Shown: positions 32,059-60,706, counted from the first letter of the stretch. The stretch: 64,000 nt of DNA from Candidatus Eiseniibacteriota bacterium (GCA_043809585.1 JBDROZ010000017.1:1-64000), one strand, 5' to 3'. Numbers and translations: made by a program. Notes: generated by a model not told the origin, from the sequence alone.

Positions 32059-32703
32059 ATGAAAGCAGCCTGCACCGTCCTCGCTCTCACACTGTTCACC
32101 GTCGGCGCCGCCTACGCCAATCCGCTCCCGGAAGGCTACGCCGGCATGGATCAGAACGGCGACCTCGTCTGCAATCCGGAAGAGATGGGGTTCGAACTGA
32201 CGGCGGGAGACGCCGGAATGAGCTTCGGCCTGGATCCGTTCTTCGACATGATCGGGGGCGGAGTGCTCTCCTTCGGCTGTGTCTTCTGTGTTCAGGACAA
32301 GAACCTCGTCTCCGACGAGTCGTGGACCTTCGCGACTCCGGCCGGCTGGACCAACGGCGTCTTCCGGAACTCGGACGAGCCGGGGTTTCCCTACCCCGTG
32401 AGCTCCTGGATCGGGGCGGCCTACCCGAACTACCGGTGCTACGCCGTGGAGGCGACTGACTTCACGTTCTCCTCCCCCCTCGCGAGCCCGTTCCCGCTCG
32501 GCACCTTCACCTTCACGTACGCCGCCGCCGAAGAGGGCTGCGTCGGGTTCGTGATCGACGGCGCCAACACGGGCTTCCTCACGACGTCGTTCATCACCGG
32601 AACGATGGAACTCGAGGGGCAGACCTGCCCGCCCTACGAGTGCGGCGGGATTTCGTCGACCGAGAAGGAGTCGTGGGGGGGCGTGAAGGCGCTCTTCCGT
32701 TAG
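32059..32703 (+). CDS. Secreted Cys-rich hypothetical protein with SW-tail
   Basis: RBS GGAGGAG; signal peptide ending AYA; C-terminus STEKESWGGVKALFR. Confidence 0.8.
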   Translation: MKAACTVLALTLFTVGAAYANPLPEGYAGMDQNGDLVCNPEEMGFELTAGDAGMSFGLDPFFDMIGGGVLSFGCVFCVQDKNLVSDESWTFATPAGWTNGVFRNSDEPGFPYPVSSWIGAAYPNYRCYAVEATDFTFSSPLASPFPLGTFTFTYAAAEEGCVGFVIDGANTGFLTTSFITGTMELEGQTCPPYECGGISSTEKESWGGVKALFR

Positions 32704-32750
32704 CCCTGGAATCGAGTTTGATCATTCGATCGGCGGTCCGCTACCTAGGT

Positions 32751-33016
32751 GGGCCGCCGGTTCTATCTGGCTTTCTGCTGCGACTCCGGCTCGCGGGCTG
32801 CGAGGCCTCCTTTCCATCGCCGCTTCCTCAACGGGGCACTTTGGCCCCGCACCTGGCGACCGAGGCCGGGTACCCACCCGAGTGGGAGGCGAGGGTGGGG
32901 GGCCGAGGGACGTCCCGGAGGCGCGGGAGCGCCGGAGGGGGAGCGGCTTGTCCAAGTCGGCCTCTCGCCTCGCGATCCGGAGCCTCGCGACGAAACCCAG
33001 AAAGAATCGGCGACCC
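32751..33016 (+). repeat. Long imperfect palindromic (rod-shaped) intergenic element, copy B
   Basis: 32774-32837 is 55/64 identical to 1181-1244 and 32939-32993 is 47/55 identical to 1329-1383; its ends base-pair. Confidence 0.8.
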
Positions 33017-33035
33017 CGGGCCGCCGGTTCTTTTT
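33002..33035 (+). terminator. Terminator-like hairpin at the 3' edge of element B
   Basis: AAGAATCGGCGACC-CCG-GGCCGCCGGTTCTT followed by TTT. Confidence 0.5.
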
Positions 33036-33237
33036 CATCGGGGAGGGCCAAGAGTACTCCCTTCCCCGGGGCAAGAGTGACTATATTCACCGACATGGGG
33101 GGAAGTTCCCCCCCAGAATTGCATTCCCCCCCGAGTGACTTTCGAGGTTCGCGCCCCCTGCGCGAGAAGCCGCGGCGATCCGGATTGCACCGCTCCTCCC
33201 CGGGCGCCCGGTCCGGCCCGCCGCCGGAGGTAGCCCC

Positions 33238-33654
33238 ATGCCCCGGTTTCTGTTGTTGACGCTTTTTTTCGCAACTGGATTCGCGATCGTTCCGGCTGCC
33301 GATGCCGCGACCTTCGTGGTGACGACTTCGGGAGTGACTTTCGTCCCCGATTCTGTGACGGTCAGCGTCGGAGACACCGTTCAGTGGGTGTGGGGCGGCG
33401 CGCCGAACCACACGGTGACGAGCGGCACCGGCTCGGCGGACCCGGACGCGGGCGCGCTCTACGACGCGCCCCTGAACTCTCTGAATCCGACCTTCTCCTA
33501 CGTCTTCTCCGGCGCGGGGGGGATCTACCCGTACTTCTGCCGTCTCCACGAACTACTGAACATGGACGGGGTGGTGATCGTCGAGGAGCAGGTGGGTGTT
33601 CCCGCCCCTTCGGGGTTGGTTTCCTGGTCCCGGATCAAGGAAGTCTTCCGGTAG
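33238..33654 (+). CDS. Secreted cupredoxin (plastocyanin/azurin family) with SW-tail
   Basis: Signal peptide; VSVGDTVQW, NHTVT, type-1 copper ligands YFCRLHELLNM; C-terminus SWSRIKEVFR. Confidence 0.9.
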   Translation: MPRFLLLTLFFATGFAIVPAADAATFVVTTSGVTFVPDSVTVSVGDTVQWVWGGAPNHTVTSGTGSADPDAGALYDAPLNSLNPTFSYVFSGAGGIYPYFCRLHELLNMDGVVIVEEQVGVPAPSGLVSWSRIKEVFR

Positions 33655-33672
33655 CCGAACAAAGCCCGGAAA

Positions 33673-33710
33673 ACGAAAGACGGCGGGGCCGGCGCCCCGC
33701 CGTTTTTCGT
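33673..33710. terminator. Bidirectional intrinsic terminator
   Basis: ACGAAAGACGGCGGGG / CCCCGCCGTTTTTCGT between the convergent cupredoxin and mscL genes. Confidence 0.75.
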
Positions 33711-33728
33711 GTCATGCGGTCCGTGGCC

Positions 33729-34178: not shown

Positions 34179-34674
34179 AACCCGCCTCCTTTGCGATGGG
34201 TGTGGCGGGGCGCACGGCACCCCGGAGATATCGTTTCGGAGAGATTGTTCGGTTTCTTGAAGCGATCGTCAAGAACAACGGGCATACCCCCCTTCCATCG
34301 AGCCCCCGGACCCCGTAGGCGCGACGGCGCATTCCCCCCTCCGCGCCCCGAGTCCCGCCGGGTCTTCCCTCTCGACATTCGGGGCCCGAACCGCCTCCTG
34401 ACCGGCGAATCAGGAGGGGCGGCTCCGCTAAGGCCCTTTCGTGAATAGCGATAAGGATTCCGTGTCTCGCGGTGTTTTGCGTCTCATGATTCCCCCGACT
34501 CGGTCGAACCTCATATGGAGAGCGATCCGGCGAAAACGCCGAAGCCGGCGGTCGTGCCATCCGCGGGTGGGCATGGCCGAAGGGGACAGAAACGACGAGG
34601 GGAACGGAACGACGGATCCGCCGCCGGGGTGGGGCGGGGTCCGGGGCGCCGGGATCCCCGGCGGGTGCTATCTC

Positions 34675-40000: not shown

Positions 40001-40075
40001 GCCGAGAACCACGATGCTCACCAGGATCATGAGGGTCGTGATGGGACGCCTGATCGCCAGTTCCGGCAGGGTCAT
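36992..40075 (-). CDS. RND efflux permease (AcrB/AcrD/AcrF family)
   Basis: [39 protein letters not shown] 40075 overlaps the upstream stop. Confidence 0.93.
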
Positions 40076-44315: not shown

Positions 44316-44343
44316 CTTCCTATAACCCTTTTCATGATACGGA

Positions 44344-44359
44344 TTTACATGTATGCAAA
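44344..44359. promoter_or_regulatory. Candidate operator upstream of the RND operon
   Basis: AT-rich imperfect palindrome TTTACAT-GT-ATGCAAA about 30 nt before the adaptor start. Confidence 0.3.
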
Positions 44360-44718: not shown

Positions 44719-46266
44719 CTACCGGAACATCTTCTTCACGGTGGTCCAGCTGGCGGCCTCGACCCGGGTCGAGCCGCCGCACCCCTCGCCGAAGGCGCCG
44801 ACGACGTCGCAGTTCTCCCCCTGCGGGTGGTTGCCCGGCAGGCAGGGGGAATCGGCCCGGAGGGTGAAGTCCTCCGCGGCGTCGTCGCAGTAGAGCGGGT
44901 CGGCGGAGAAGTTCCCCGCCACGCCGAGCTGGCCGGCGATCGGGCCGACCCAGTCTCCCCCCTCGTTGCCGAAGATGTCGCAGCAGGAGAAGTCCGCGCT
45001 CCCCGACCCGTCCCACGAGACCCCGGCTCCGAGAAGACCGAAGGAGACGATGGTGTTCTCCAGCGTGACTTCCGACTCGAATATCACGGCGATTCCCGAG
45101 CCGACGGGCGAACGGTTCCCGTTCATGGTGCAGTCATAGAGGTTGTAGACGGAGTTGACCGAGGCGAAGAGGGCGCCCCCGGAGTCATTGGCGGCGTTGG
45201 CGGAGAAGACGCACTCCCGGAACTCGAGGGTCGAGATCTCGGAGTACACGCCGCCGCCGTTCAGGGTCGCCGAGTTCCCCTCGAACCGGCATCGCAGGAA
45301 ATCGGCGGGGCCGTTGACCGAGACGCCCGCGGCGTACGTGGCGGTATTCTCCCGAAAGATGCATTCCTCCAGGGAGGCGCTCCACTCGGAGATCGCCATC
45401 CCCCCCGCGGCGAGGCTCCCGTGGTTGCCCACGAACTCGCACCGGAGCAAATTGGCATAGGAGGGGTGGTAGGGCCCGGCGTACGAGTACATTCCCCCGC
45501 ACGCGAAGTTCCCGCGGTTCCCCTTGAAGAGACAATCGGTGAGGTCCGCTTCGGTGGAGTAGCTGAAGATCCCCCCGGCGTATCCCCCCTCGTTCCGATC
45601 GAAGAGGACGTCGCCCAGGCGGACCGTCGACTCCCACATCCCGAGGGCGCCCCCGAGGTCCGACTCGGAGGGGGCCACATTCCCGGCGAACACGGTCGAC
45701 ACGATCTCCGCCGTCGACGATTCGATCCACGCCCCCCCTCCGAACTTGGCGTGGTTGTCCTCGATACCGGAGTCCTCGATCCGGGCGTCGGGAGAGCCGA
45801 TCACGTAAAGGGCGCCGCCGTTCTCCCCGGCGCCGTTGTTCCGGAGGGCCATGTTCCTGATCACGATCCCCGAGTTCGAGCACCGGATCGCGCCCCCCTC
45901 GTTCGCCCCGTACCCGTTCCGGATGGTGAAGGCCTCGAAGGTGACGGGGTCTCCGGCGGCCGCGGAGACCAGGAATCCCCGGTGGGGCGATCCAACAGAT
46001 CCCTCGCAGTCGAGGACGCACGAGCCCGGGGAGAGGCTCGTGGAATGAACGACGATCCCGCCCGCCCCGATCGCGACGTCCCGGTTGCCGTCGCCGCTGA
46101 AGGTGCCGTCGCCGAGGAGGACCGTGTCCCCCGGCGCCGAGGCGTCGACCGCCGCCTGGATGGTCGGGAAGTCGCCGGTGCCGCCGGGAAGGACGAGCCG
46201 GGAGGCGGGCCATCCGGCGGCCGGAAGCAGGAGGAACGAGAACAGGAGAAGAAGGAACGGGCGCAT
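44719..46266 (-). CDS. Secreted right-handed beta-helix repeat protein (GGA/FxxN repeats) with SW-tail
   Basis: Signal peptide; FPTIQAAVD..PGDTVLL..GTF; about ten GGA(I/L) plus FxxN repeats; ADPLYC..DFTL..DSPC; C-terminus SWTTVKKMFR. Confidence 0.85.
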   Translation of the reverse strand: MRPFLLLLFSFLLLPAAGWPASRLVLPGGTGDFPTIQAAVDASAPGDTVLLGDGTFSGDGNRDVAIGAGGIVVHSTSLSPGSCVLDCEGSVGSPHRGFLVSAAAGDPVTFEAFTIRNGYGANEGGAIRCSNSGIVIRNMALRNNGAGENGGALYVIGSPDARIEDSGIEDNHAKFGGGAWIESSTAEIVSTVFAGNVAPSESDLGGALGMWESTVRLGDVLFDRNEGGYAGGIFSYSTEADLTDCLFKGNRGNFACGGMYSYAGPYHPSYANLLRCEFVGNHGSLAAGGMAISEWSASLEECIFRENTATYAAGVSVNGPADFLRCRFEGNSATLNGGGVYSEISTLEFRECVFSANAANDSGGALFASVNSVYNLYDCTMNGNRSPVGSGIAVIFESEVTLENTIVSFGLLGAGVSWDGSGSADFSCCDIFGNEGGDWVGPIAGQLGVAGNFSADPLYCDDAAEDFTLRADSPCLPGNHPQGENCDVVGAFGEGCGGSTRVEAASWTTVKKMFR

Positions 46267-46313
46267 GGGGGGCCTCCTCTGGCGCGGGGGTCGGTTGAAC
46301 CGAGCTCGCAACC

Positions 46314-48469: not shown

Positions 48470-51400
48470 TCATCGGATCAAGACGAGCTTTCTGGTCTCC
48501 GTAAAGGGCCCCGCATCGAGGCGGTAGAAGTAGACGCCCGACCCGACCTCCCGGTTCCTCTCGTCCCGCCCCCGCCAGAGCGCGGTGTGTCGTCCCTCCG
48601 TCCGCACTTCGCCGTCGACAAGGACCCTTACGAGCCGTCCCGAGACGTCGTAGACCCGGAGCGTTACGGGGGAGGGGCAGGGAAGGTCGTAGCGAATCGT
48701 AGTCGCCGGGTTGAACGGGTTCGGCGAGTTCGGGTGGAGCGCGAAGGGAAGGCCGGGAACGCCCGCCCCGCCGCCGTCCGCTACGTCCGTGACGATCTCT
48801 TCGATCACGATCTTCTGGTTGGCCGTCACGGCCGTCCGGATCGAGACGTTGCCGGAAGGCCAGAGAACGATGATCGAGTCGACGATTCCGGCCGTCCCAA
48901 GGCCGAACTCGGCGGTCAGCGAGTTCATGGGCGCCAGGTAACCGCCCCCCGCCTCGACCTCCCGGATCTGGGCGCGCCGCCCGCCCGTCCCCGCGCCGGT
49001 GATCACCTCGATGCGGGCGCCGATGCCGCGGCTGTTCGAGACCGCCCCGGCCAGGTCGACGTGGAGCCAGGGCCAAGCCGAAGCGCCGTCGTTCCGGTAG
49101 AGCTTGTTCGCGAGGGAGTAGTGCGAATTGTAGATGTCGAGGTCCCCGTCACCGTCGTAATCGCCGAGGGCGGCGCAAATGCCCCCGCGGGAGTCGCACG
49201 GCGGATCGAGAAGGTAATCGGCGAACACGCCGCTTCCCTGGTTCATATAGAGGCGGTTCGCGACGCCGTAGTTGGCGATGTAGAGATCGAGATGTCCGTT
49301 GTGGTCCAAGTCGGCCCACTGGGCGGCGTAGGTCGGATTGGTCTCGGCCAGGAGCGAGGGCGTCACGTCGGTGAACACGCCTCCCCCCTGGTTTTGTAAC
49401 AGCCGGTTCGGATAGGCGGCCGTTCCGTTGGCGAGGTACATGTCCAAATCGCCGTCGTTGTCGTAATCCCCCCACGCCGCGACGGCGCTGGTTCCGACGC
49501 TTCCGAGAGGGCCGCTCGTGGCGTTCACGAAGACCTCGTTCCCCTCGTTCCGGTACAATCGGTTCGGGCCGGTGTAGTTCGCCACGTAGATGTCGAGGTC
49601 GCCGTCGTCGTCGTAGTCGGACCAGGAAACGCCGGCGCTGCTTCCCGTGTCGTCCAGCGGCGGCGCGGTGACGTCGACCAGCTGGCCGCCATCGTTCCGG
49701 TAGAGCCGGTTCTTGCTGCTCCCCCCCGCCCCCTGCATGTTCCCCACGTACATGTCGATGTCGCCGTCGTTGTCGTAGTCCCCCCACGCCCCGGTCTGGG
49801 TGTTCCCCGTGTCGGAGGCGGCGAAGGAGGAGACATCCGTGAAGACATCGCCCCCGTCGTTCCGGAGCAGGGCGTTCAGCTGGGCCGCGCCGCGAAGGAC
49901 GAAGATGTCGAGATCCCCGTCGTCGTCGTAGTCCCCCCAGAGTCCGCTGATGTCCCGCTCCCCACCGAGAATGGGTCCGGCCGCCACGTCGACCCACGCC
50001 CCGCCGTCGTTCCGGCAGAGCCGGTTCGGGTAGGTCGACGCCCGGGCGATGAAGAGATCGAGATCGCCGTCGCCGTCGTAGTCCCCCCAGGCGATCCCGG
50101 TGCTCTGGTCCGTGGGGTCGAGAGGCGAAACCGTGGCGTCGACCCACTGGACGCCGAGAAGGGCGAAGGCGGCGAGAAGGTCCGGCCGGGGCCCGATGTT
50201 CCCGGGCGGCCCGAAGACCTGGGGCGTGCCCGTGGTCTTCAAGAGATTCCTGATGTAGGAGGGCGACGGGGGCGTCGTCGAGATCGTCGCCTTCCAATGT
50301 CCCACGACGCACGCCACCGCCCCCGCTACGATCGGCGAAGCGCTCGACGTGCCGCTGAACATGTGGGTGAAGAGGCTGTCGTAGCCGCCCTGGTTGTAGA
50401 GGTGCCCGTAGCCGGTGGTCGCCACGTCCTCGCCCCACCCCTGGAGATCGAAGCGGGGGCCGTAGCTCGAGTAGCCGCACCGTTCGAGGTCGGTCTCCAC
50501 CCACGTGCCTCCCGGCCAGGCACCGCCCCCCCCGACGATGATGGCCCCCGAGTCGCCGTACCACGAGAGGAGTCCCGTGTTCACGCCCGTGCCGGCGGCG
50601 TTCCCCCCGTTGCCTCCGGCCTCGACGACGCTGATGCCGTTGCCGACGGCGGCGGCGATCGCCGCGTAGACGCCGTTGTACGTCTGCGCCCCCGGCCACC
50701 AGTTCGTCCACCACTCGATCGGGATGAAGTCGGTGTGGGCCGTCGTGGTGTCGTCGTAATCCCACTGCTGTTCGAGCAGGATCACGTCCCCCGCCTGGAG
50801 GGCGGCCGCGGCCATGGCGATGGCCGCCGGCACGTCCCACGTCGTGTCGGGGGGAGTGCCCGGGACGATGAAGTTGGTGCCGCAGGTCCGTAGGTTCGAC
50901 CCGTAGCAGATGCCGCTCGTGCCCCAGCCGTTCCGGTCCGACACGAGTTCGCCGAGCACCGCCGTTCCGTGATGATCGTCGCTGAAGGGATCGACGAGGG
51001 TGTTCGTGTTGATCTCACACCAGGGGTAGGCGGCCTTCGAGATGTCCGCGTGGTTCCTGTTCCAGCTGTACTCGAGATCACAGACCGTCGCCCCCGCGCC
51101 GTTTCCCCAGGTTTGGGTCCAGGCGTACTCGGCGTCGATGCCGGTCGGGTAGGGGGAATTGTTCGCCGGATCGAGGTAGTACTGCATGTACTCGTAGTCG
51201 TAGACGGGCGGCGGCGCCGGCAGCGGCATGGGACGGGCGGTCAAGACCCCGGGCAGGGCTTCGAGATCCTCGCAGATCTTCCACACGTCGTGCCCCTTCG
51301 GAATCTCGAGCCGGTAGATGTTGTTCAGATTGTAGACCGGATCGCCCCCCTTGGCCGCGGCCGCTCGTTCCCAGGCGTCGAAGGTCGATTCCGGAACATC

Positions 51401-51652
51401 GCAAAGACGGCGCCACTCGTGCCACGAGAGGGCGGCCAGCCTCTCCTCGACCCCCGCCATCGCGCCCGTGGCGGGGTCGGCCGGGATTCCGTCCCGGAGA
51501 CGGACTTTCGCGTCCCACGCGAACATCACTTCGATGAGATCGTCGCGGCAGGCAAGGGTCGAAGGTTCGCCGGCGGAAGCCGCGGGCGAAAGGAAAAGCA
51601 CTGTCGAAGCGAGAATAAGAAGGGCTCGGAAAGGGGGAACCGGACAGATCAT
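48470..51652 (-). CDS. Secreted S8 subtilase with 7 FG-GAP-like repeats, ASPIC/UnbV domain and FlgD-Ig/T9SS-like C-terminal domain
   Basis: Triad VCDLE / HGTAVLG / GTSSASP; seven DxDxDGDLD repeats; PNPFNP..VYDVSGRLV..SGVYFYRL..KLVLIR; RBS AGGAGGT before ATG 51652. Confidence 0.88.
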   Translation of the reverse strand: MICPVPPFRALLILASTVLFLSPAASAGEPSTLACRDDLIEVMFAWDAKVRLRDGIPADPATGAMAGVEERLAALSWHEWRRLCDVPESTFDAWERAAAAKGGDPVYNLNNIYRLEIPKGHDVWKICEDLEALPGVLTARPMPLPAPPPVYDYEYMQYYLDPANNSPYPTGIDAEYAWTQTWGNGAGATVCDLEYSWNRNHADISKAAYPWCEINTNTLVDPFSDDHHGTAVLGELVSDRNGWGTSGICYGSNLRTCGTNFIVPGTPPDTTWDVPAAIAMAAAALQAGDVILLEQQWDYDDTTTAHTDFIPIEWWTNWWPGAQTYNGVYAAIAAAVGNGISVVEAGGNGGNAAGTGVNTGLLSWYGDSGAIIVGGGGAWPGGTWVETDLERCGYSSYGPRFDLQGWGEDVATTGYGHLYNQGGYDSLFTHMFSGTSSASPIVAGAVACVVGHWKATISTTPPSPSYIRNLLKTTGTPQVFGPPGNIGPRPDLLAAFALLGVQWVDATVSPLDPTDQSTGIAWGDYDGDGDLDLFIARASTYPNRLCRNDGGAWVDVAAGPILGGERDISGLWGDYDDDGDLDIFVLRGAAQLNALLRNDGGDVFTDVSSFAASDTGNTQTGAWGDYDNDGDIDMYVGNMQGAGGSSKNRLYRNDGGQLVDVTAPPLDDTGSSAGVSWSDYDDDGDLDIYVANYTGPNRLYRNEGNEVFVNATSGPLGSVGTSAVAAWGDYDNDGDLDMYLANGTAAYPNRLLQNQGGGVFTDVTPSLLAETNPTYAAQWADLDHNGHLDLYIANYGVANRLYMNQGSGVFADYLLDPPCDSRGGICAALGDYDGDGDLDIYNSHYSLANKLYRNDGASAWPWLHVDLAGAVSNSRGIGARIEVITGAGTGGRRAQIREVEAGGGYLAPMNSLTAEFGLGTAGIVDSIIVLWPSGNVSIRTAVTANQKIVIEEIVTDVADGGGAGVPGLPFALHPNSPNPFNPATTIRYDLPCPSPVTLRVYDVSGRLVRVLVDGEVRTEGRHTALWRGRDERNREVGSGVYFYRLDAGPFTETRKLVLIR

Positions 51653-51762
51653 GACACACCTCCTGGAGAAGGTGCCGTCCCCCCGCCCGCCGGCCGGGGG
51701 GTGGCCGTTCGGGTCGTTTCGCGGGGTGTTCGGAATCACCCGGCTCGAAGCTGCGCACCCCA

Positions 51763-51771
51763 ATTATAGCA
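51763..51771 (-). promoter_or_regulatory. Extended -10 promoter for the minus-strand subtilase
   Basis: TG-C-TATAAT on the minus strand. Confidence 0.55.
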
Positions 51772-51977
51772 CACAGGAGATTCACACAGGAAGGGGTGGC
51801 CGGGGGGTGTGAGGGGTCGGAGCCACGGGGGCCGGCCGGGATCGGGCGAGAAGGCCCGGCCGGGAGGCACGCCCCCGGCGGGGGCGCCCGCTGTCCTCTT
51901 TCGGTACAGGGGCGGAACCTCATCCTCCGCGCCGGTTTGGCGGACCGGCGCCCCCTCGCGGCCCCTTCCCTACTCCT

Positions 51978-52006
51978 TTGACTTTCAAAGCGTTATGCAG
52001 TATAAT
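51978..52006 (+). promoter_or_regulatory. Near-consensus sigma70 promoter for the large subtilase
   Basis: TTGACT-17 nt-TATAAT. Confidence 0.75.
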
Positions 52007-52135
52007 CACGGCGTATCCGAGATGGAAAGGGGTGCCCTACTCTCCCTCGTCATGCCCCTCCGAGACGACTCTCCGCCGAGAGCGGTTTTTTCATCCCCAA
52101 ATGGCGCCGCGTCGCGGCGAAATCGGGAGGATTCT

Positions 52136-55100
52136 ATGCCGAAGCAGACGCGGTTCTTCATCGCATTCGCCGCACTCTTGGTTGGTATGGGAACGGCCGG
52201 GGCTTCCGACGCGCCGACCTACTTCTACTATCAAGGAGAGCGGGTCGAACTGGAGCTGGATCCGGGGCGTCTCTACGTCCGTGTGGTCGAAGGAACGCCG
52301 GCGGCCGCGGTGGAGGGGAACGCCCCCTTCGTCTTCATGGCGGGCGCCGAACTCGAGCGTACGTCCCTCGACGAGTGGCGCTTCCTCGTCTTCGAATCGG
52401 CGGCGGACAAGGCCGCCGACGCGAGGGACCGCGTCGAAGCCGCCATCGCGACGGACCAGTTCGACTTCGTGTCCCCCGTGTTCCGGGGCGTCCACTTCGG
52501 CCGGGTCGCGATCACGCCGGATCTGCTCGTCCGCTTCGCGCCGGGCTACCGGAACCGGGCGGGGTCGATTCTCGCCGGTCTCGAACCATCGCTGGCGACC
52601 CTGGACCCGACTTTCGGCGGGATGGAGGGGGCGCTGAAGCTCCGGACGAAGACGAAGGACGGCTTCGAGGTGCTCGCGATCGCGAACCGTCTCGCCGAGG
52701 ACCCGCGCATCGCCTGGGCCGAACCGGACTTCATGATCACCGGAAGGAACGAACTCACCCCGAACGATCCCGGCTTCTCGGATCTCTGGGGGATCAAGAA
52801 CACGGGGCAGTTCGGCGGGACGCCGGACATGGACATGGACGGCGACACGGCGTGGGATATCACCACCGGCGACTCGACGATCATCGTTCTCATTCTCGAC
52901 ACGGGCGTGCAGCAGGACCACCCGGACCTGAATCAGGTCCCGGGGAGGGACTTCACCACCCAGAACTACTTCGGCGGGCCGGGGAATGAATGCGACAACC
53001 ACGGCACGACCGTGGCCGGGTGCGTTTCGGCGGTCATCAACAACAGCCTCGGCACGGTCGGAATCGCCCCGGACTGCCGGATCGCTTCCGCCCGCATCGG
53101 CATCTCCACCGTTCCTTGCGAAGGAACGTGGTCGGGTCAATACAGTTGGTCCGTGGACGCCTTGGACTGGGCGATGACGAACGGCTTCCGGGTGACGAAC
53201 AACAGCAACTCCTACGGCAACATTTCGAACGCGCTCAACGACAAGTACGCCGAGACCCGGGCGTGGGGCATGGTCCACTTCGCCTCGGCCGGGAACAACA
53301 ACGTCGACCTCATCAGCTATCCGTCGAGCCTGCCCACGGTCATGTCGATCATGGCCCTCACGCCGACCGGCGCCCGGGCGTCCTTCAGCAGCTGGGGGAA
53401 CGGTCTCGCCTTCGGCGCCCCCGGGACCGATGTGTACACCACGGACCGGACCGGCTCCCTCGGGTACTCGTCGGGCGACTACGCCTTCGTCCAGGGGACG
53501 AGCTTTTCCTCTCCCTACTCGGCCGGCGTGGCGGCCCTTCTCCTCTCCCGTCGGCCCGAGCTCTCGGCGCCCAACGTGGAAGGCATCCTGAAGTACACCT
53601 GCGTCGATCTCGGAGCGGAAGGATACGATCTCACCTTCGGGTGGGGCTTCGTGAACGCGGAAGCGGCCCTCGGGTTCGGTGGGTGGTACGACGCCTCCGA
53701 GAGCCCCGTGGACGACGACGGGAACGGCGCGGGCGTGGTCTGGCTAGACTTCGACGGGGGCGCCGATCTGGATCTCTACATCGTGAACAACGGAACGGGG
53801 AACCGGCTCGTCCGGCAGGGACCGAACGGGTGGCTCAATTTCACGAGCGGTCCCGTGGGGGACGCGGGGAACGGTGCCGGCGCCGCGGCGGCGGATTACG
53901 ACAACGACGGCGACGAGGACATCTACCTCGCCAACGACGGGGCGAACAGGCTATTCCGGAATGACGACGAGACATTCGTCGACGCCACGAGCGGGCCCCT
54001 CGGGGACGCCGGCACCGGGCGGAGCGTGGCGTGGGCGGACATCGAGAACGACGGCGATCTCGACCTCTACCTCGCCAACAACGGGGCGAACAAGCTCTTC
54101 CGGAACGACGGCGGGACCTTCGTGGACGCCACGGCCGGACCGCTCGGCGACGGGGACGACGGACGGGGAGCGGTCTTCGGCGATTACGACGGCGACGGCG
54201 ATCTCGATCTCTACCTCGTCGACAACGGCGCGAACAATCTGCTGGAGAACGACGGGAGCGGCTCCTTCACCGACGTGACTCCCGCCCTGCTCGCCGATGC
54301 CGGCGACGGATACGGCGGGGAGTGGGGGGACGTGGACAACGATGGCGACCTCGACCTCTACCTATCGAACGACGGCGCGAACAAGTTGTTCGTCAATCTC
54401 GGGGGCGGCTCCTTCTCGGACGGGACGGGCGGCGTTCTCGGCGACGCCGGAAACGGCCGGAGCGTGGGCTTCGCGGACGCGGACAACGACGGCGATCTCG
54501 ATTTGTACCTCGTGAACTCCGGGAGCGCGAACAGGCTGCTCCGGAACGACGGGGGCCTCGTCTTCGCGGACGTCACCGTCGAACCCCTCGACGACGCCGG
54601 AACGGCGGCGGGCATGGCGTGGGGCGATTACAGTGGCAGCGGCATGTCCGACATCTACCTCGCCAAGTCGGGCGCGAACGAACTCTACCGAAACGTCTCG
54701 TACCCGGCGAACTCGTGGGTGGGGCTCCGGCTGATCGGCGTCGCTTCCAACCGCTCCTCCGTCGGCGCCCGGGCGCGGGTCGTGGCGAACGGCGCGGCCC
54801 AGATCCGGGAGGTCACGGCCGGCTCGGGCTACCTCTCCCAGAGGTCGCTCCATCTCGATTTCGGTCTCGGGAGCGCGACGGTGATCGACACGATCCACGT
54901 CGAGTGGCCTTCGGGATTGACGAAGACCTTCACGAACCTCCCCGTCGACTCGCTCTACACGATTCGGGAGTTGACGCCGCCCGTCGTGAGGGTGACCTCG
55001 CCGAACGGAGGCGAGGAGTGGGGCCAGGGGGCAACGGAGACGATCACCTGGACCAGCACGGGGGGAGTGCCCGATTGGTTCTTCATCGAGTATTCGACCA

Positions 55101-58100
55101 GCGGCGGCGCCGCCTGGGACTCGGTCCACTACGAGGCGGGGCCCGGGAGCGGCAGTTACGACTGGCTCGTGCCGACCACCCCGTCGACCCAGGCCCTCGT
55201 GCGGATCACCATGGAGAACGGCGACGGGACGTCGATCGACACGAGCGACGGCTTCTTCTCGATCAAGGCGATCCCGGTGGTGACCGTGACGGCGCCGAAC
55301 GGAGGCGAGCTGTTCGAGGTGGGTACGGTAGAGAACGTGACCTGGACGAACACGGGGGAGGCCGCCACGGCCCACACCGTGGAGTACAGCGCCGACGCCG
55401 GAGCCGGGTGGACCGTGCTCGCCGACTCCCTTCCCGGCGACGGCGGCAGCTTGCCGTGGACCGTCTCCGACACGCCGTCCCTGGAGGCCCTCGTCCGGGT
55501 GACCCTGTTCAACGCCGAAGGGTCGGCTTCGGACGAGAGCGACGCCTTCTTCAGCATCGCCCCCGAGGCGAACGTATCGACGGAGTTCGCCGACGGAACG
55601 GTTTCGCCCCTGGACGATGCCGGCGCGGGCCGGGGGGCGGCGTGGGGCGACTTCGACGGGGACACGGACCCGGACCTCTACCTCGTAAACAGCGACGGGC
55701 CGAACCGGCTCTTCGAGAACCAGGGCGGCGTTTTCGTGGACGTGACGGGCGCTCAACTCGGCGACGTGGGGGATGGATACGGCGCGGCGTGGGGGGACTA
55801 CGACAACGACGGCGATCCCGATCTCTACCTCGCCAATTCCGACTCGGGCAACAAGCTTTTCCGGAACGATGCGGGAACCTTCGTGAACGTCACCGCCTCG
55901 CCGGTGGGCGACCTCGGCAAGGGACGGACGACCATGTGGATCGACGCCGAGAACGACGGCGACCTCGACCTCTACCTGATCAACGTGGCCGGCGGGAACA
56001 AGCTGTTCGAGAACGACGGCGGCGGGACCTTCACCGACGGGACGTCGGCGCCGATCAACTCGGGCGGCACCAAGTGGGGCGGGGCGTGGGCGGACTACGA
56101 CAATGACGGCGATCTCGACCTCTACGTGGCGCGCCTCGGGACCAACCAGCTCTTCCGGAACGAGGGGTACGGCAACTTCACGAACGTGACGAGCGGTCCC
56201 GCGGGGGACGGCGGGCTGGGCTTCGGCGCGGCCTGGGGCGACTACGACAACGACGGCGACTTCGACCTGTACGTGACGAACCAGGGCCCGAACGTGCTCC
56301 TCCGGAACGACGGCGGGACGTTCGTCGACGCCACGAGCGGGCCCCTCGGCGACGTCGGAAAGGGGTGCGGCGCGTCGTGGGCCGATTACGACAACGACGG
56401 CGACCTCGATCTTTATCTCGCGAACGACGGGTACAACCGCCTCTTCCGGAACGACGGAGCGGGGGTCTTCGCCGACGCGGCGAACACGCCCCTTCTCGAC
56501 GCCGGTTCCGGGCAATCGGTGACGTGGGCCGACGCCGACCGGGACGGGGACCTCGACCTGTACGTGACGAACCTCGGCGCGAACAAGTACTTCCGGAACG
56601 ATCTCTCGAGCGGCGCCCACTGGATCCACGTCACCCCCGTCGGAACCGTTTCGAACCGGATGGCCATCGGCGCCCGGGTGCGGGTCGTGGCGGGCGGCCT
56701 GTCGCGAATCCGGGAGATCAGCGGCGGCGGCGGCTACCTCGGCCAGGACTCGCCGGAGGCGGAGTTCGGTCTCGGTGCGGCGGCGACGGTCGACACAATC
56801 GAGATCTCCTGGCCTTCGGGCGCGGTGCAGACGCTGGCCGGGTTCGCGGCGGACCAGTTCGTGCAGATCGTCGAGCCCGCGGCGCGGTGGGTCGACGCGA
56901 CGACCGGCCCTCTCGGCGACACCGGCTTCGGGCAGGGGGCGGCATGGGGGGATTACGACGGCGACGGCGATCACGATCTGTACGTTTCGAATTCGGGCGG
57001 CGCGAACGTGATGCTCCGGAACGAAGGGGCGGGGGCGTTCAGCGACGTGACGGGCGGTCCCCTGGGCGACGGGGCCGCCGGCGCGGGTGTCGCGTGGGCG
57101 GACATGGACGACGACGGCGATCTGGACCTCTCCCTGGTGAACGCGGGATCGGCGAACAAGTTCTTCCGTAACGACGGCGGGGGGACGATGATCGACGGGA
57201 CATCCGGCCCCCTCGGCGACTCCGGGTTCGGCTTCGGCACGTCATGGAGCGACTACGACGGCGACGGCGATGCGGACCTCTACGTGGTGAACGCGGGGTC
57301 GTCGAACAAGCTCTTCCGGAACGACGGCGGGGGCGCATTCGTCGACGCCACGACCGCCGTGGTGGGGGACGCCATCGGGTTCGGCTTCACGGCAGCGTGG
57401 GGCGACTACGACAACGACGGTGACGGCGACCTCTACATCGGAAACGGGTTCGGTCCGAACAAGCTGATCCGGAACGACGGCGCGGGCGTCTTCACCGATA
57501 TCACCGCCGGTCCCCTCGCCGACGGGAACAGCACCTACGGCGTGGCGTGGGGGGACTACGACAACGACGGCGATCTCGATCTCTATCTCGCGAACGAGTT
57601 GGCGGCCAACCGGCTTCTCCGGAATGACGGGGGCACGTTCGTCGACGCGACGAGCGCTCCCCTCGGCGACACGGGGGCGGGCTACGGCTGCTCCTTCGTC
57701 GACTTCGACAACGACGGCGACCTCGACGTCTTCGTGGCCCAGTCGGGGGCGAACCGGCTCTTCGAGAACCTCGGGGGCGGGAGCTTCGCCGACGCGGCGG
57801 AGACTCCCGTTCGGGACGCCGCTTCCAGCGCCGGCGCGGCGTGGGCCGACTACGACGGAGACGGCGATCTCGATCTCTACCTGCCGAACGCGGGGGGGGC
57901 GAACAAGCTCTTCCGGAACGACGATCCGGGGACGAACCGTTGGATCCAGGTGGACCTCGTGGGGAGCGCCTCGAACAGGTCCGGGATCGGCGCGCGCGTG
58001 CGGGTCGTGGCGGGGGGCGGGGCGCAAATCCGGGAGGTCGCGAGCGGCTCCGGGTTCCTCAGCCAGGACGCGCTGACCGCCGGGTTCGGTCTCGGGGCTT

Positions 58101-58516
58101 CGGCGACGATCGACTCGATCATCGTCCGGTGGCCGAGTGGTACCGTGACGGACACGGCGAACGTGGCCGCCGACCAGCGGATCACGCTCTTCGAAGAGAC
58201 GGTCCAGACCGGCGTGGCGGGGGGCCCGCCCCTTCCTGTCCGCTACGAACTCTTCGGCAACGCGCCGAACCCGTTCAACCCGGTGACGACGGTCCGCTTC
58301 GCTCTTCCCGAGCGGAGCCGGGTGAGTCTGTCGGTCTACGACATTTCGGGGCGGCTCGTGAGGGCCCTGAAGACCGGAGAAGAGGACGCCGGCTGGTTCT
58401 CGGTCACCTGGAACGGCCGGGACGGGGCGGGACGGGAGGTCGGCTCGGGCATCTACTTCGTGCGGATGGCGACGCCGAAGCACTCGGACACGAAGAAGAT
58501 GGTCCTGATCAGATAA
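52136..58516 (+). CDS. 2126-aa secreted S8 subtilase with three FG-GAP propeller/ASPIC-UnbV modules, two Ig-like domains and FlgD-Ig/T9SS-like C-terminal domain
   Basis: RBS GGGAGG; signal peptide; triad ILDTG / HGTTVAG / GTSFSSP; 3 x 7 DxDxDGDLD repeats; two PNGGE..W Ig-like units; PNPFNP..KMVLIR. Confidence 0.9.
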   Translation: MPKQTRFFIAFAALLVGMGTAGASDAPTYFYYQGERVELELDPGRLYVRVVEGTPAAAVEGNAPFVFMAGAELERTSLDEWRFLVFESAADKAADARDRVEAAIATDQFDFVSPVFRGVHFGRVAITPDLLVRFAPGYRNRAGSILAGLEPSLATLDPTFGGMEGALKLRTKTKDGFEVLAIANRLAEDPRIAWAEPDFMITGRNELTPNDPGFSDLWGIKNTGQFGGTPDMDMDGDTAWDITTGDSTIIVLILDTGVQQDHPDLNQVPGRDFTTQNYFGGPGNECDNHGTTVAGCVSAVINNSLGTVGIAPDCRIASARIGISTVPCEGTWSGQYSWSVDALDWAMTNGFRVTNNSNSYGNISNALNDKYAETRAWGMVHFASAGNNNVDLISYPSSLPTVMSIMALTPTGARASFSSWGNGLAFGAPGTDVYTTDRTGSLGYSSGDYAFVQGTSFSSPYSAGVAALLLSRRPELSAPNVEGILKYTCVDLGAEGYDLTFGWGFVNAEAALGFGGWYDASESPVDDDGNGAGVVWLDFDGGADLDLYIVNNGTGNRLVRQGPNGWLNFTSGPVGDAGNGAGAAAADYDNDGDEDIYLANDGANRLFRNDDETFVDATSGPLGDAGTGRSVAWADIENDGDLDLYLANNGANKLFRNDGGTFVDATAGPLGDGDDGRGAVFGDYDGDGDLDLYLVDNGANNLLENDGSGSFTDVTPALLADAGDGYGGEWGDVDNDGDLDLYLSNDGANKLFVNLGGGSFSDGTGGVLGDAGNGRSVGFADADNDGDLDLYLVNSGSANRLLRNDGGLVFADVTVEPLDDAGTAAGMAWGDYSGSGMSDIYLAKSGANELYRNVSYPANSWVGLRLIGVASNRSSVGARARVVANGAAQIREVTAGSGYLSQRSLHLDFGLGSATVIDTIHVEWPSGLTKTFTNLPVDSLYTIRELTPPVVRVTSPNGGEEWGQGATETITWTSTGGVPDWFFIEYSTSGGAAWDSVHYEAGPGSGSYDWLVPTTPSTQALVRITMENGDGTSIDTSDGFFSIKAIPVVTVTAPNGGELFEVGTVENVTWTNTGEAATAHTVEYSADAGAGWTVLADSLPGDGGSLPWTVSDTPSLEALVRVTLFNAEGSASDESDAFFSIAPEANVSTEFADGTVSPLDDAGAGRGAAWGDFDGDTDPDLYLVNSDGPNRLFENQGGVFVDVTGAQLGDVGDGYGAAWGDYDNDGDPDLYLANSDSGNKLFRNDAGTFVNVTASPVGDLGKGRTTMWIDAENDGDLDLYLINVAGGNKLFENDGGGTFTDGTSAPINSGGTKWGGAWADYDNDGDLDLYVARLGTNQLFRNEGYGNFTNVTSGPAGDGGLGFGAAWGDYDNDGDFDLYVTNQGPNVLLRNDGGTFVDATSGPLGDVGKGCGASWADYDNDGDLDLYLANDGYNRLFRNDGAGVFADAANTPLLDAGSGQSVTWADADRDGDLDLYVTNLGANKYFRNDLSSGAHWIHVTPVGTVSNRMAIGARVRVVAGGLSRIREISGGGGYLGQDSPEAEFGLGAAATVDTIEISWPSGAVQTLAGFAADQFVQIVEPAARWVDATTGPLGDTGFGQGAAWGDYDGDGDHDLYVSNSGGANVMLRNEGAGAFSDVTGGPLGDGAAGAGVAWADMDDDGDLDLSLVNAGSANKFFRNDGGGTMIDGTSGPLGDSGFGFGTSWSDYDGDGDADLYVVNAGSSNKLFRNDGGGAFVDATTAVVGDAIGFGFTAAWGDYDNDGDGDLYIGNGFGPNKLIRNDGAGVFTDITAGPLADGNSTYGVAWGDYDNDGDLDLYLANELAANRLLRNDGGTFVDATSAPLGDTGAGYGCSFVDFDNDGDLDVFVAQSGANRLFENLGGGSFADAAETPVRDAASSAGAAWADYDGDGDLDLYLPNAGGANKLFRNDDPGTNRWIQVDLVGSASNRSGIGARVRVVAGGGAQIREVASGSGFLSQDALTAGFGLGASATIDSIIVRWPSGTVTDTANVAADQRITLFEETVQTGVAGGPPLPVRYELFGNAPNPFNPVTTVRFALPERSRVSLSVYDISGRLVRALKTGEEDAGWFSVTWNGRDGAGREVGSGIYFVRMATPKHSDTKKMVLIR

Positions 58517-58544
58517 CGAGCGACATAACAACGAATTACGATGG

Positions 58545-58574
58545 GGCCCGGGACTTCGCCGTTCCGGGCCTTTT
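58545..58574 (+). terminator. Intrinsic terminator
   Basis: GGCCCGGGA / TTCCGGGCC stem followed by TTTT. Confidence 0.6.
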
Positions 58575-58660
58575 CATCGGTCGGCCTTGGGGGGGACATC
58601 TTCGAAAAAGAGATCAAGATCTTCTCCGATCGCGCCGATCTTTGGTTCGAGGAGGAGAAG

Positions 58661-59296
58661 ATGCGACGGGTTGCCCTTCTGTTGTGGGCGGCGATGCTCG
58701 CCCTTTCGTGCGGGTCGGACCGGGGAGCGAATGTGGCCCGCTCGATTCCCCCCCGTCTCGAGGACCCCGACGAGTTTTTGGGGCGCGTCGCCGCGGCGTA
58801 CACCGCCATGGACACGGCGGCCTACTTCCTGGAGCTCGACCCGGCGTACGTCTTCGAGATGAGGGTGGACGAGTGGTCCGCCGCCGGTCTCTCCGCGCGG
58901 GCGTGGGACCGGGCGGGAGAGAGGGCGGTCACCCGGCGGCTCTTCACGGGCGGACGAAACGACGAGGCCGAATGGGTCGACGAGATCCGGATGGGCCTCC
59001 TCGTGAGGAGCGTGGCCGAAGACCGGACCGACTATCCGGGGCGCCCGCCGGGGGAGACCTGGTACCGGGTCGCGGCGCTCGTCGAGATCGACGCGGTGAT
59101 CGTCAATCCCGTGGAGATGGCGATCACGACCTACCATGTCCTGTCGCCGCAATCCTTCGTGGTCCGCCCCGATCCGCGGGGGACGGGCCGGTATCTGGTG
59201 GCGCGGCAATCCGACGAGCCTCCGGCCGCCGTTGATGACACCGGCTCCGCGACCTCCCTCTCCTGGGGTCTCCTCAAAGCCCGCTTCTACCAGTAG
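58661..59296 (+). CDS. Lipoprotein, divergent paralog 1, with SW-tail
   Basis: RBS GGAGGAG; lipobox ALSC; AAYTAMD, WD..E, W..V.ALV, Q.F.VRP shared with the next two genes; tail SWGLLKARFYQ. Confidence 0.8.
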   Translation: MRRVALLLWAAMLALSCGSDRGANVARSIPPRLEDPDEFLGRVAAAYTAMDTAAYFLELDPAYVFEMRVDEWSAAGLSARAWDRAGERAVTRRLFTGGRNDEAEWVDEIRMGLLVRSVAEDRTDYPGRPPGETWYRVAALVEIDAVIVNPVEMAITTYHVLSPQSFVVRPDPRGTGRYLVARQSDEPPAAVDDTGSATSLSWGLLKARFYQ

Positions 59297-59332
59297 CTGG
59301 TGTCAGGCACCATCTTCCCCCGTTTTCCCTTG

Positions 59333-59361
59333 GTGACACCCACCGCCTGAAGTGGTATCCT
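59333..59361 (+). promoter_or_regulatory. Candidate sigma70 promoter
   Basis: GTGACA-17 nt-TATCCT with extended TG. Confidence 0.5.
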
Positions 59362-59408
59362 TCTAAACAAGCCGATCGATCATCGGACCTCCAACCAGGA
59401 GCACAGCC

Positions 59409-60050
59409 ATGCGCCGTCTTCTCCCGTTTGCGGCAGCGTTCTTGGCACTGGCCCTCGCCGTTTCCTGCGGCGATGACGACAACCCCGCGGACACGGGCGA
59501 TCCGGAACCGGAACTGCCCAAGACCCCGGCGGAGCTGATCACTCAGTTCTTCCGCGCCGCCTACGCGTCGATGGACAGCGCCGCCTACGCCGCCCTTCTC
59601 GATTCGGCGTACGTCTTCGTGCTTTACGCGGCGGGAGTCGATCCAGACGACCCGAACCCGTGGTGGGACCTGGGCGAGGAGATGAAGATCGCGGGGCACA
59701 TGTTCGGCGGGTGGTACAACGATGACGGGCAGAAAGTCGAACGGATCGTTCTGCAGATGACGGAGCGCTTGAACGTCGTCGACAACACCCCCTACCCGGA
59801 CAAACCGGAAGGCGAGGAGTGGCGGAAGGTGACGGCTCTGATCGATCTCCTCGTCGTCGTCAACGATCCGGACGACGTGGATGGATTCATCAACTTTGTG
59901 GTTGCTTCCGACCAGCTCTTCACCGTCCGCCCGAGCCGGACCGATTCGACGACCTGGACCGTCTACAAGCAGGTCGACCAGGAGCCGATCAACAAGGGAA
60001 CGGGGACCGAGAACGCGTCGTGGGGAGCGGTGAAGGAGATGTTCCGATGA
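59409..60050 (+). CDS. Lipoprotein paralog 2 with SW-tail
   Basis: Lipobox AVSC then GDDDNP; tail SWGAVKEMFR. Confidence 0.85.
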   Translation: MRRLLPFAAAFLALALAVSCGDDDNPADTGDPEPELPKTPAELITQFFRAAYASMDSAAYAALLDSAYVFVLYAAGVDPDDPNPWWDLGEEMKIAGHMFGGWYNDDGQKVERIVLQMTERLNVVDNTPYPDKPEGEEWRKVTALIDLLVVVNDPDDVDGFINFVVASDQLFTVRPSRTDSTTWTVYKQVDQEPINKGTGTENASWGAVKEMFR

Positions 60051-60706
60051 TGGGCGGGGGCTTCCTCACCGGCCGGGCAGGGGCATTCGCCATGATCCTC
60101 GCCGCCGCCCTCTTTCTCGCCTGCGGCGACGACGACAACCCCGCGGACGCGGGCGATCCGGGACCGGAACTGCCCAAGACCCCGGCGGAGTTGATCACCG
60201 AGTTCTTCCCCGCTGCCTACGCGTCGATGGACAGCGCCGCCTACGCTGCGATCCTGGACGAGGACTATCGGTTCGAGCTGATCCCGGGGGAGGTCGATCC
60301 CGACGACCCGAACCCGTGGTGGAATCTCGAAGAAGAGATGAAGATCGCAGGAAACATGTTCAACGCGCGGTACAACGAAGAAGGCCAGCGGGTCGACCGC
60401 ATCAAGCTCCAGATGACGGAGCGCTCGAACGTCGTCGACAACACTCCCTACCCGAACAAACCGTCCGGCGAGGAGTGGCGGGAGGTGACGGCCCTCGTCG
60501 ATCTCCTTGTGGTCATCGACGACCCCGATGATCCGGAGGGGGTCACCATCTTCGTCATCGGCTCCGACCAGCTCTTCACGGTCCGCCCGAGCCGGACCGA
60601 TTCGACCGCCTGGACCGTCTACAAGCAGATCGACCAGGAGCCGATCAACAAGACCGGCTCCACCGCTGACGCCTCCTGGTCCGGCGTCAAATCCCTCTTC
60701 CGCTGA
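60047..60706 (+). CDS. Lipoprotein paralog 3 with SW-tail
   Basis: ATGA overlap with paralog 2; lipobox FLAC then GDDDNP; tail SWSGVKSLFR. Confidence 0.85.
   Translation: MMGGGFLTGRAGAFAMILAAALFLACGDDDNPADAGDPGPELPKTPAELITEFFPAAYASMDSAAYAAILDEDYRFELIPGEVDPDDPNPWWNLEEEMKIAGNMFNARYNEEGQRVDRIKLQMTERSNVVDNTPYPNKPSGEEWREVTALVDLLVVIDDPDDPEGVTIFVIGSDQLFTVRPSRTDSTAWTVYKQIDQEPINKTGSTADASWSGVKSLFR

Follow-up and report, generated by a model that had tools for sequence, protein, structure and literature searches.

Six proteins encoded in a 64,000-nucleotide stretch of a Candidatus Eiseniibacteriota metagenome-assembled genome (MAG; Eisenbacteria in the following) end in a short peptide resembling S-W-G-x-[VI]-K-x-[LM]-F-R. 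The whole stretch, contig C17:1-64000, is referred to as the window. The tail looks like an undescribed protein-sorting tag common to a group of bacterial phyla. It is strictly terminal, confined to proteins with signal peptides, modular and selected as a peptide; it is interchangeable with the C-terminal domain (CTD) of type IX secretion systems (T9SS) and was found almost only in genomes bearing SprA. A receptor may read the tail, and such a receptor would belong to the T9SS and decide the final location of the cargo.

Carriers and conserved unit of the tail

The carrier genes of the window are listed below with the positions of their tails, each including the stop codon. Translation agrees with the six endings and the coordinates that an earlier note on this DNA had given.

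32059..32703, plus strand: carrier 1, Cys-rich secreted protein, family unassigned, with 13 tail-bearing paralogs in the genome; tail SWGGVKALFR at 32671-32703
33238..33654, plus strand: carrier 2, small signal-peptide-bearing cupredoxin of the plastocyanin/azurin family; tail SWSRIKEVFR at 33622-33654
44719..46266, minus strand: carrier 3, right-handed beta-helix protein with PMP repeat, in a cluster of 10 tail-bearing paralogs; tail SWTTVKKMFR at 44719-44751
58661..59296, plus strand: carrier 4, member of an NTF2/cystatin-like lipoprotein family with the lipobox LSCG; deviant tail SWGLLKARFYQ at 59261-59296
59409..60050, plus strand: carrier 5, lipoprotein (lipobox VSCG) with an NTF2/cystatin-like fold; tail SWGAVKEMFR at 60018-60050
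60047..60706, plus strand: carrier 6, lipoprotein paralog (lipobox LACG) of 219 amino acids; tail SWSGVKSLFR at 60674-60706

The earlier note had assigned these proteins to four unrelated types, all of them exported, and this assignment holds: they belong to blastp clusters of 13, 1, 10 and 5 members, all six have signal-peptide-like N-termini and three contain a lipobox. Carrier 1, in which the linker GGISSTEKE precedes the tail, matched no Pfam or NCBIfam family. Carrier 2, which forms a singleton cluster, matched PF00127 (Copper-bind, 2.4e-07) over residues 29-116, with the tail outside the domain, and carrier 3 matched PF02415 (Chlam_PMP), its likely start being the methionine of MRPFLLLLF. 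Carrier 4 aligns with carriers 5 and 6. For this lipoprotein family, whose homologs are named Candidatus Eisenbacteria, AlphaFold2 predicted an NTF2/cystatin-like body (mean predicted local distance difference test score, pLDDT, of 85), a linker at residues 190-200 (pLDDT 69) and a tail helix at residues 205-210; Foldseek returned NTF2/cystatin-like proteins for the model. Three metagenomic homologs of the family (P0009, P0012 and P0013) end with ...DQEPIN, exactly where linker and tail begin in the others, and are either natural tail-less forms or truncations at contig ends. The start codon of carrier 6 overlaps the stop codon of carrier 5 (ATGA, 60047-60050), which suggests translational coupling of the tandem paralogs.

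The genome (4.24 Mb, 123 contigs) was scanned in six frames, which gave 7.59 million residues in 61,273 stop-to-stop open reading frames (ORFs) of at least 30 amino acids. The pattern [ST]W..[VILMA]K..[FYW] was found 59 times within four residues of a stop codon versus four times elsewhere, and two of these four matches lay just five residues from the stop. The looser pattern W-x-x-[VIL]-K-x-x-[FY] was terminal in 67 ORFs, two of which (41 and 64 amino acids) are probably spurious. A profile hidden Markov model (HMM) built from 60 tails was run over all ORFs with a cut-off of 15 bits and gave 64 matches, 63 of them C-terminal and one internal. Both counts agree with the terminal position described earlier.

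The sole internal high-scoring tail (26 bits) is located in a minus-strand ORF of 225 amino acids on contig C115 (reverse-complement coordinates 12133-12810), which reads ...TGTEKESWGSVKRRFR and continues for 84 further residues; a stop codon may have been lost here, or the ORF may be a fusion. A 628-amino acid lipoprotein related to the lipoprotein family of the window (C88:27491-29377, plus strand) contains an internal TSWGDLKKIFH at residue 351 in addition to its terminal tail, as if two units, each with a tail, had been fused in tandem.

When the tails were aligned at the tryptophan, the conserved unit comprised approximately 19 residues, (C/G)-G-P-T-S-T-E-x-[TSA]-S-W-G-x-[VI]-K-x-[LM]-F-R-COOH. 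The ten terminal residues of the earlier description are correct, but the true unit is longer and includes the P-T-S-T-E linker, in which T, S, T and E were counted 45, 39, 53 and 43 times among the 67 ORFs. In the tail itself, W and K are present in all 67, F in 63, R in 58 and G in 56, and the stop codon directly follows the residue after F (the R position) in 60 of the 67. The segment from W to the stop spans nine residues, two of them charged (K and R), so a transmembrane segment after the motif is impossible, as the earlier note had recognized. Third codon positions of the tail vary freely: glycine is encoded by GGC (25), GGG (12), GGT (9) and GGA (5), the serine before the tryptophan by codons of both the AGC and the TCN families, and all three stop codons are used. 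Because synonymous sites vary in this way, selection acts on the tail peptide. The 40 nucleotides downstream of the stop codon look random (mean entropy 1.90 bits). The earlier notion of a short amphipathic helix is supported with respect to the helix, which is predicted in two AlphaFold2 models, but the amphipathicity is only moderate: hydrophobic moments average 0.49 at 100 degrees, versus 0.43 at 180 degrees, and 17% of shuffled sequences reach the observed value, so that this measure does not discriminate here.

Signal peptides were called with a deliberately permissive heuristic, applied equally to carriers and background; a signal-peptide-like N-terminus was present in 63 of the 67 carriers versus 1219 of 3586 (34%) background ORFs of at least 150 amino acids with high GC content at third codon positions (Fisher p ~1e-24). 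A lipobox was found in seven carriers. After removal of the last 20 residues, the bodies of 65 carriers formed 33 blastp clusters, the largest with 13 (Cys-rich), 10 (beta-helix) and 5 members (the lipoprotein family at 58.6-60.7 kb). These numbers bear out the proposal of a portable tag confined to exported proteins. Among 20 further carriers, Pfam searches identified PPC, VWA, the Lamin-tail domain LTD (twice), PD40, pAdhesive_15 and Lcl_C at or near the cut-offs; 11 were without any Pfam family, and two had sub-threshold matches alone.

The earlier note had left room for an existing family model of the tail. None was found: no model of Pfam-A (2025 copy) covers the tail in 30 proteins (26 Eisenbacteria carriers and four from other phyla), and none of NCBIfam release 20 in ten (six Eisenbacteria carriers and the four from other phyla).

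Interchange with type IX C-terminal domains

The Eisenbacteria genome encodes SprA (an ORF of 2058 amino acids) and two PorU proteins above the curated cut-off (C39:1357-4836 and C39:109688-113119). Nine PorV-like barrels were detected (C39:510-1151, C59, two on C72, C50, C74, C53, C76 and C13), the best of which is located directly downstream of a PorU. Two further proteins on C66 and C25 combine a PorU-like N-terminal half with a CTD of their own, and the set of T9SS shuttle and sortase paralogs is unusually large. FlgD_ig, the CTD form used in this genome, was found at 150 places (E ≤0.01). A set defined by a regular expression contained 106 T9SS-type CTD proteins, a minimum for the genome; these CTDs end with T-[RK]-[KR]-[MLI]-[VT]-L-[LIV]-R; the L is found in 100 of them, and the last residue is R in 88 versus K in 11.

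Tail and CTD did not occur together in any of the 106 CTD proteins. For 23 of the 65 carriers, a CTD-bearing paralog is encoded in the same genome (E ≤1e-6); that of carrier 1 is located on contig C21 and that of carrier 3 at C70:96137-97690. In the pairs that show this best, the alignment of the bodies extends up to their last residues, after which one protein has the 19-residue tail and the other a linker with a CTD of approximately 90 amino acids. An example is ...LSIEGY-CGGTAAESATWGRVKGIFR-stop versus ...LTIDGY, where a linker of 30 residues leads into a PNPFNP-type CTD. In the beta-helix family, the same split occurs after ...CGLIGA..GCE. The tail is thus no integral part of the carrier domains and sits in the position of a T9SS-type CTD, both of which the earlier note had supposed. 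This exchange between paralogs is the strongest evidence for a tail that, as a module, serves sorting or anchoring by the same logic as the CTD. Carriers are shorter than CTD proteins (median ORF 278 versus 742 amino acids). Both signals end with L or M, a hydrophobic residue and R with a free carboxylate ([LM]-F-R in tails, L-[LIV]-R in CTDs). In 22 CTDs encoded near carriers in other lineages, the last residue was K in 17, a number for which the comparison with tails is uninformative, since the DNA pattern used to find those tails forced R.

The two CTD proteins of the window serve for comparison:

48470..51763, minus strand: S8 subtilase of 1097 amino acids, FG-GAP/ASPIC (ASPIC/UnbV) repeats, FlgD_ig-type CTD ending with KLVLIR
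51809..58516, plus strand: S8 subtilase of 2235 amino acids, FG-GAP/ASPIC (ASPIC/UnbV) repeats, FlgD_ig/Por_Secre_tail CTD ending with KMVLIR

Unlike the carriers, both subtilases match T9SS CTD HMMs. These two giant genes are placed divergently.

Lineages, SprA and the single-copy FN3 carrier

Other genomes were scanned for DNA encoding WG-x-[VI]-K-x-x-FR-stop, with the same pattern read backwards as the control. The pattern occurs 38 times in the Eisenbacteria genome, 9-37 times in each of eight genomes of the same family and 18 times in one other member of the class; among 31 genomes of other phyla, two had one match each. In one other phylum, the tail was present in 40 of 52 genomes (39 with a single match), and among 401 evenly sampled Bacteroidota in 88 (87 with a single match). 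The reversed pattern was absent from the Eisenbacteria genome and all relatives; it matched once in one genome of the 52-genome set and in no other genome searched with it.

A scan of a collection with one genome per species yielded at least 116 stretches, 80 of them with titles. The matches listed stem almost exclusively from Ignavibacteria, Melioribacter, Rosettibacter, Kapaibacterium, Chlorobiota, Hymenobacter, Adhaeribacter, Eisenbacteria, Krumholzibacteria, Latescibacterota, Zixibacteria, KSB1, Calditrichaceae, Fibrobacteraceae and Delongbacteria, lineages which we take to belong to the Fibrobacteres-Chlorobi-Bacteroidetes (FCB) group. The matches listed also include a Gemmatimonadetes-labelled record with an Eisenbacteria-type tail, which was not counted as a separate phylum, and two records labelled Alphaproteobacteria.

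Two modes of occurrence were found. In Eisenbacteria, Krumholzibacteria, Latescibacterota and some Fibrobacteraceae, the tail is attached to diverse proteins and the linker ...[ST]-E-x-x-[ST]-W-G... is kept; one Fibrobacteraceae genome has nine matches. In Ignavibacteria, Kapaibacteria, Chlorobiota, Hymenobacteraceae, Calditrichaceae, KSB1 and Delongbacteria, it is found on one conserved small protein, and the genomes of a Hymenobacter, an Adhaeribacter, a Melioribacter (MAG) and a Rosettibacter contain a single copy each. Of the complete ORFs of other phyla that carry the tail and do not encode this small protein, 53 of 55 have a signal-peptide-like N-terminus (17 truncated or short ORFs were skipped). 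The tables of PMC3079729 list a Fibrobacter 'basic terminal domain' (FPm-1) as a paralogous module; the Fibrobacteraceae carriers found here have no basic-rich region before the tail.

The conserved small protein, of 130-142 amino acids, combines a signal peptide with an FN3-like domain; its ending is ...S-G-V-K-R-T-W-G-S-I-K-A-M-F-R (SGVKRTWGSIKAMFR). It was found at 49 loci (in the range L011-L126), for example:

L067:6038-6445, minus strand: FN3 carrier
L076:6854-7273, plus strand: FN3 carrier

Among the 49 proteins, there is no variation at W, G, I, K, F and R, and all 49 start with a typical signal peptide. The family comprises at least 815 protein-database clusters; the names listed are all 'hypothetical protein' with the exception of one 'uncharacterized membrane protein'. 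The FN3 carrier matched no Pfam or NCBIfam family. In the AlphaFold2 model (pLDDT 90), an FN3 sandwich (residues 24-117) is followed by a linker and a C-terminal helix (123-134); Foldseek with this model returned generic FN3 domains alone, and a search of the ESM Atlas returned unnamed 'hypothetical protein' clusters alone. A profile search of the Eisenbacteria genome did not detect an ortholog, the matches being FN3-like repeats in a 1051-amino acid ORF and tails only. Genes recurring next to the FN3 carrier at the 49 loci encode Maf (27), a SpoIID-like lipoprotein (16) and a MATE-type transporter (14), as well as Ham1 in Hymenobacteraceae.

The occurrence of the tail is nested within that of SprA. 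In a set of 41 relatives, SprA was present in all 12 tail-positive genomes and in 9 of the 29 tail-negative ones, and the tail was absent from all 20 SprA-negative genomes. In the 52-genome set, all 40 tail-positive genomes had SprA and the single SprA-negative genome lacked the tail; in the Bacteroidota sample, SprA was present in 88 of 88 tail-positive genomes, and none of the 88 SprA-negative genomes had the tail (read from two tables). Four of five further tail-bearing genomes had SprA, the exception being a 1.6-Mb MAG that may be incomplete; one of the five is probably already contained in the relatives set. In total, SprA was found in 143 of 144 tail-positive genomes, with the probable duplicate and a shared genome counted once each, and the tail in none of the 109 SprA-negative genomes of the three sets. 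Since the genomes are kin, this association is suggestive and no statistical proof.

Candidate roles of the tail

We tentatively favour a role of the tail as a C-terminal docking or sorting tag that is read by a receptor, the receptor being part of, or feeding, the T9SS and its attachment pathway. Tagged proteins would first cross the inner membrane by Sec. The T-S-T-E linker and the short helix S-W-G-x-[VI]-K-x-[LM]-F-R with its free carboxylate would then act as a docking peptide, to which a conserved envelope protein of the FCB group might bind via W, K, F and the terminal R. Binding would fix the final place of the cargo. In the Eisenbacteria genome, the tail would represent a compact alternative to the T9SS CTD of approximately 100 amino acids, mainly used by small proteins; the receptor would most likely belong to the apparatus for type IX secretion and attachment, as a component or a shuttle, and the cargo would reach the cell surface, to be displayed there or released. 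In lineages with a single carrier, the tail would mediate the interaction between the FN3 protein and its partner, at a docking site that may have been opened to dozens of proteins in Eisenbacteria and a few other phyla.

A protein receptor is favoured over lipid binding because of the fixed distance to the free C-terminus and of W, K, F and R, which stay invariant between very distant lineages, and also because the tail is restricted to exported proteins, is combined with surface-type cargo domains and takes the place of the CTD in paralogs. The cargo domains LTD, VWA, pAdhesive_15, Lcl_C, PPC and the PMP-repeat beta-helix are typical of surface proteins and support the docking role at the T9SS. 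The exchange with the CTD, the similar ending of both signals, the T9SS genes of the Eisenbacteria genome and the nesting within SprA-bearing genomes speak for it as well.

In complex predictions, 23 tails of 40 amino acids with the canonical PorV (residues 23-323) scored 0.00 in both runs, which included no controls and covered one of the nine PorV-like paralogs; this score speaks neither for nor against binding. Several observations argue against the assignment to the T9SS. The Eisenbacteria carriers are scattered and unlinked to porV, porU and sprA, the shortest distance being 2.1 kb, to a PorV-like domain on C50, and the recurrent neighbours of the FN3 carrier include no T9SS gene and no obvious receptor at the 49 loci. 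The strict pattern was found in 88 of the 313 SprA-positive Bacteroidota and was absent from the other 225; the tail is therefore not a general T9SS element. The 1.6-Mb MAG bears the tail with no match to SprA. The co-occurrence with SprA is confounded by phylogeny, as all lineages are kin and the SprA-negative Bacteroidota are probably one clade. The cupredoxin and lipoprotein cargo would fit the periplasm as well as the surface, and a predicted helix of 10-19 amino acids is unlike the known, folded T9SS signals.

Some of these points would be explained by a docking tag independent of the T9SS, which is possible though rather unlikely in our view. Another envelope protein, for example one associated with peptidoglycan or the outer membrane, would tether the cargo, so that CTD paralogs would be secreted and tail paralogs retained. 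All arguments for a receptor apply equally here. The cell-wall and division-type genes next to the FN3 carrier (SpoIID-like lipoprotein, Maf, MATE/MOP-type transporter), the cupredoxin and NTF2-like lipoproteins as typical periplasmic proteins, the many SprA-positive Bacteroidota lacking the strict pattern and the missing linkage to T9SS genes are all consistent with such a tether. It does not account for the absence of the tail from all 109 SprA-negative genomes, for cargo domains of the surface-adhesin type or for the position of the tail exactly at that of the CTD in paralogs.

We are doubtful about a bolder proposal, in which the tail would be a third, minimal class of type IX signal, a peptide of approximately 19 residues ending with L/M-F-R-COOH that suffices to hand Sec-exported cargo to the SprA translocon or a PorV-like shuttle and stands in for the folded CTD of 100 amino acids. 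In this scenario, the single-copy FN3 carrier in Ignavibacteria and Hymenobacteraceae would represent the ancestral client or a T9SS accessory subunit, and the docking site would have been opened to dozens of cargo proteins in Eisenbacteria, Krumholzibacteria and some Fibrobacteraceae. Such a signal would form a new class, because the known T9SS signals are folded domains of approximately 100 or 150-235 amino acids; if true, it would overturn the view that only folded domains serve this purpose and would provide a very short secretion tag.

A peripheral membrane anchor that needs no receptor appears improbable. The helix would insert W, V, L and F into the leaflet or the lipopolysaccharide, with K and R at the interface, comparable to the C-terminal anchor of PBP5-type carboxypeptidases or the membrane-targeting sequence of MinD. 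The helix predicted in two AlphaFold2 models, the mean moment of 0.49 (100 degrees) and the aromatic and basic composition typical of interfacial helices would fit this role. However, the amphipathicity is unremarkable (matched by 17% of the shuffles, 0.43 at 180 degrees) and only approximately ten residues are involved; lipids would need neither the near-invariance of W, G, K, F and R nor the exact stop after R (60 of 67). Moreover, seven carriers are already lipid-anchored, and the restriction to SprA-positive genomes would be left unexplained.

Very improbable is a pro-peptide that is cleaved off, or a tag marking proteins for quality control or degradation by a periplasmic C-terminal protease, with no role in localization. 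The extreme C-terminal location, the small residues of the conserved T-S-T-E linker, which could be a cleavage site, and the lipoprotein homologs ending just before the linker point in this direction, but such a tag would have no reason to replace a secretion domain in paralogs or to be confined to T9SS-bearing genomes. Classical substrates of tail-specific proteases have a non-polar ending, and the tail ends with arginine. A motif without function, be it a chance occurrence, a DNA repeat located where genes end or the final structural element of a single domain family, can be dismissed in view of the 59 terminal versus four other matches, the reversed control (0 in the relatives set), the unconstrained third codon positions and downstream DNA, the 33 unrelated clusters and the result of the tail profile.

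With the receptor-read docking tag as the preferred interpretation, the tail can be compared with known C-terminal signals. According to PMC12618676, known T9SS signals are folded domains: type A comprises approximately 100 amino acids in a seven-stranded beta-sandwich bound by PorV, and type B 150-235 amino acids bound by PorP/SprF-like shuttles. Like the type A CTD (TIGR04183/PF18962; FlgD_ig-like PF13860), the tail is located at the extreme C-terminus of Sec-dependent proteins, is modular and is attached to unrelated cargo; it shares with it the genomes, including that with SprA, PorU and PorV, the cargo families, the phylogenetic range and the ending of two hydrophobic residues and a basic one with a free carboxylate. 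In contrast to it, the tail comprises approximately 19 residues in a predicted helix, lacks CTD motifs such as PNPFNP, occurs on smaller proteins and was not found in most T9SS-positive Bacteroidota sampled. Type A HMMs did not match the six window carriers (Pfam and NCBIfam, E ≤1) or 20 further carriers (Pfam, E ≤0.01). The type B CTD (TIGR04131) had no NCBIfam match on the window carriers, and the tail is too short for it. Type B CTDs often have a porP/sprF-like gene directly downstream. Next to the window carriers lie further carrier genes and those of a histidine kinase and a PMT_2 glycosyltransferase, none of them porP/sprF-like, although no search aimed at PorP/SprF was made.

PEP-CTERM, LPXTG, GlyGly-CTERM and MYXO-CTERM signals are tripartite, with a motif, a transmembrane helix and a basic cluster. 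The tail resembles these exosortase, sortase and rhombosortase signals as a short signature near the C-terminus of many unrelated signal-peptide proteins per genome and in the appearance of a cargo family with alternative C-terminal signals; unlike PEP-CTERM, LPXTG and GlyGly-CTERM, it has no transmembrane helix followed by a basic cluster. No dedicated sortase gene was recognized for it. Secretin S-domains are C-terminal peptides that become helical on their pilotin, and the known cases serve one client each. The tail would likewise be a short flexible peptide that turns helical and docks on an envelope protein, but with approximately 65 clients in one genome. Like the amphipathic anchor of PBP5/DacA-type proteins, it is a short helix, here a predicted one, at the C-terminus of soluble domains exported by Sec. 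The sequences of such anchors show weak conservation and tolerate changes, whereas the tail is nearly invariant across phyla with a fixed end residue. The beta-signal of outer-membrane proteins assembled by the BAM complex is the terminal aromatic residue of a beta-barrel protein; the last residue of the tail, in contrast, is R in 58 of the 67 ORFs and the carrier folds are soluble (cupredoxin, NTF2-like, FN3, beta-helix).

No description of the motif was found among the matches listed in searches of the full-text literature, which did not extend to supplementary files and subscription journals. The tail could be categorically new if its receptor is novel or if it is a minimal T9SS signal. C-terminal sorting signals define surface proteins, and each new one so far pointed to new envelope machinery. 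This one is unusually small and nearly invariant across phyla known almost only from metagenomes, and in the Eisenbacteria genome it marks approximately 65 proteins annotated as hypothetical. It offers a one-line rule to predict the exported envelope and surface proteomes of Eisenbacteria, Krumholzibacteria, Latescibacterota, Zixibacteria, Fibrobacteraceae and Ignavibacteria, and an experimental handle, as the receptor could be fished out with a synthetic peptide whose C-terminus is free and with cultured species that have a single carrier.

Among the remaining genes of the window, the PMT_2 protein, a membrane glycosyltransferase of 599 amino acids similar to dolichyl-phosphate-mannose-protein mannosyltransferases, is encoded directly downstream of the three lipoprotein genes (60753-62552, plus strand). 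Between carriers 2 and 3, two tandem AcrB-type resistance-nodulation-division (RND) transporters (1115 and 1034 amino acids) and an HlyD-type membrane fusion protein are encoded on the minus strand (36992-44372). Upstream, a hybrid CHASE8 histidine kinase (34441-37002) and a subunit of a V/A-type ATPase (30119-31555) were identified.

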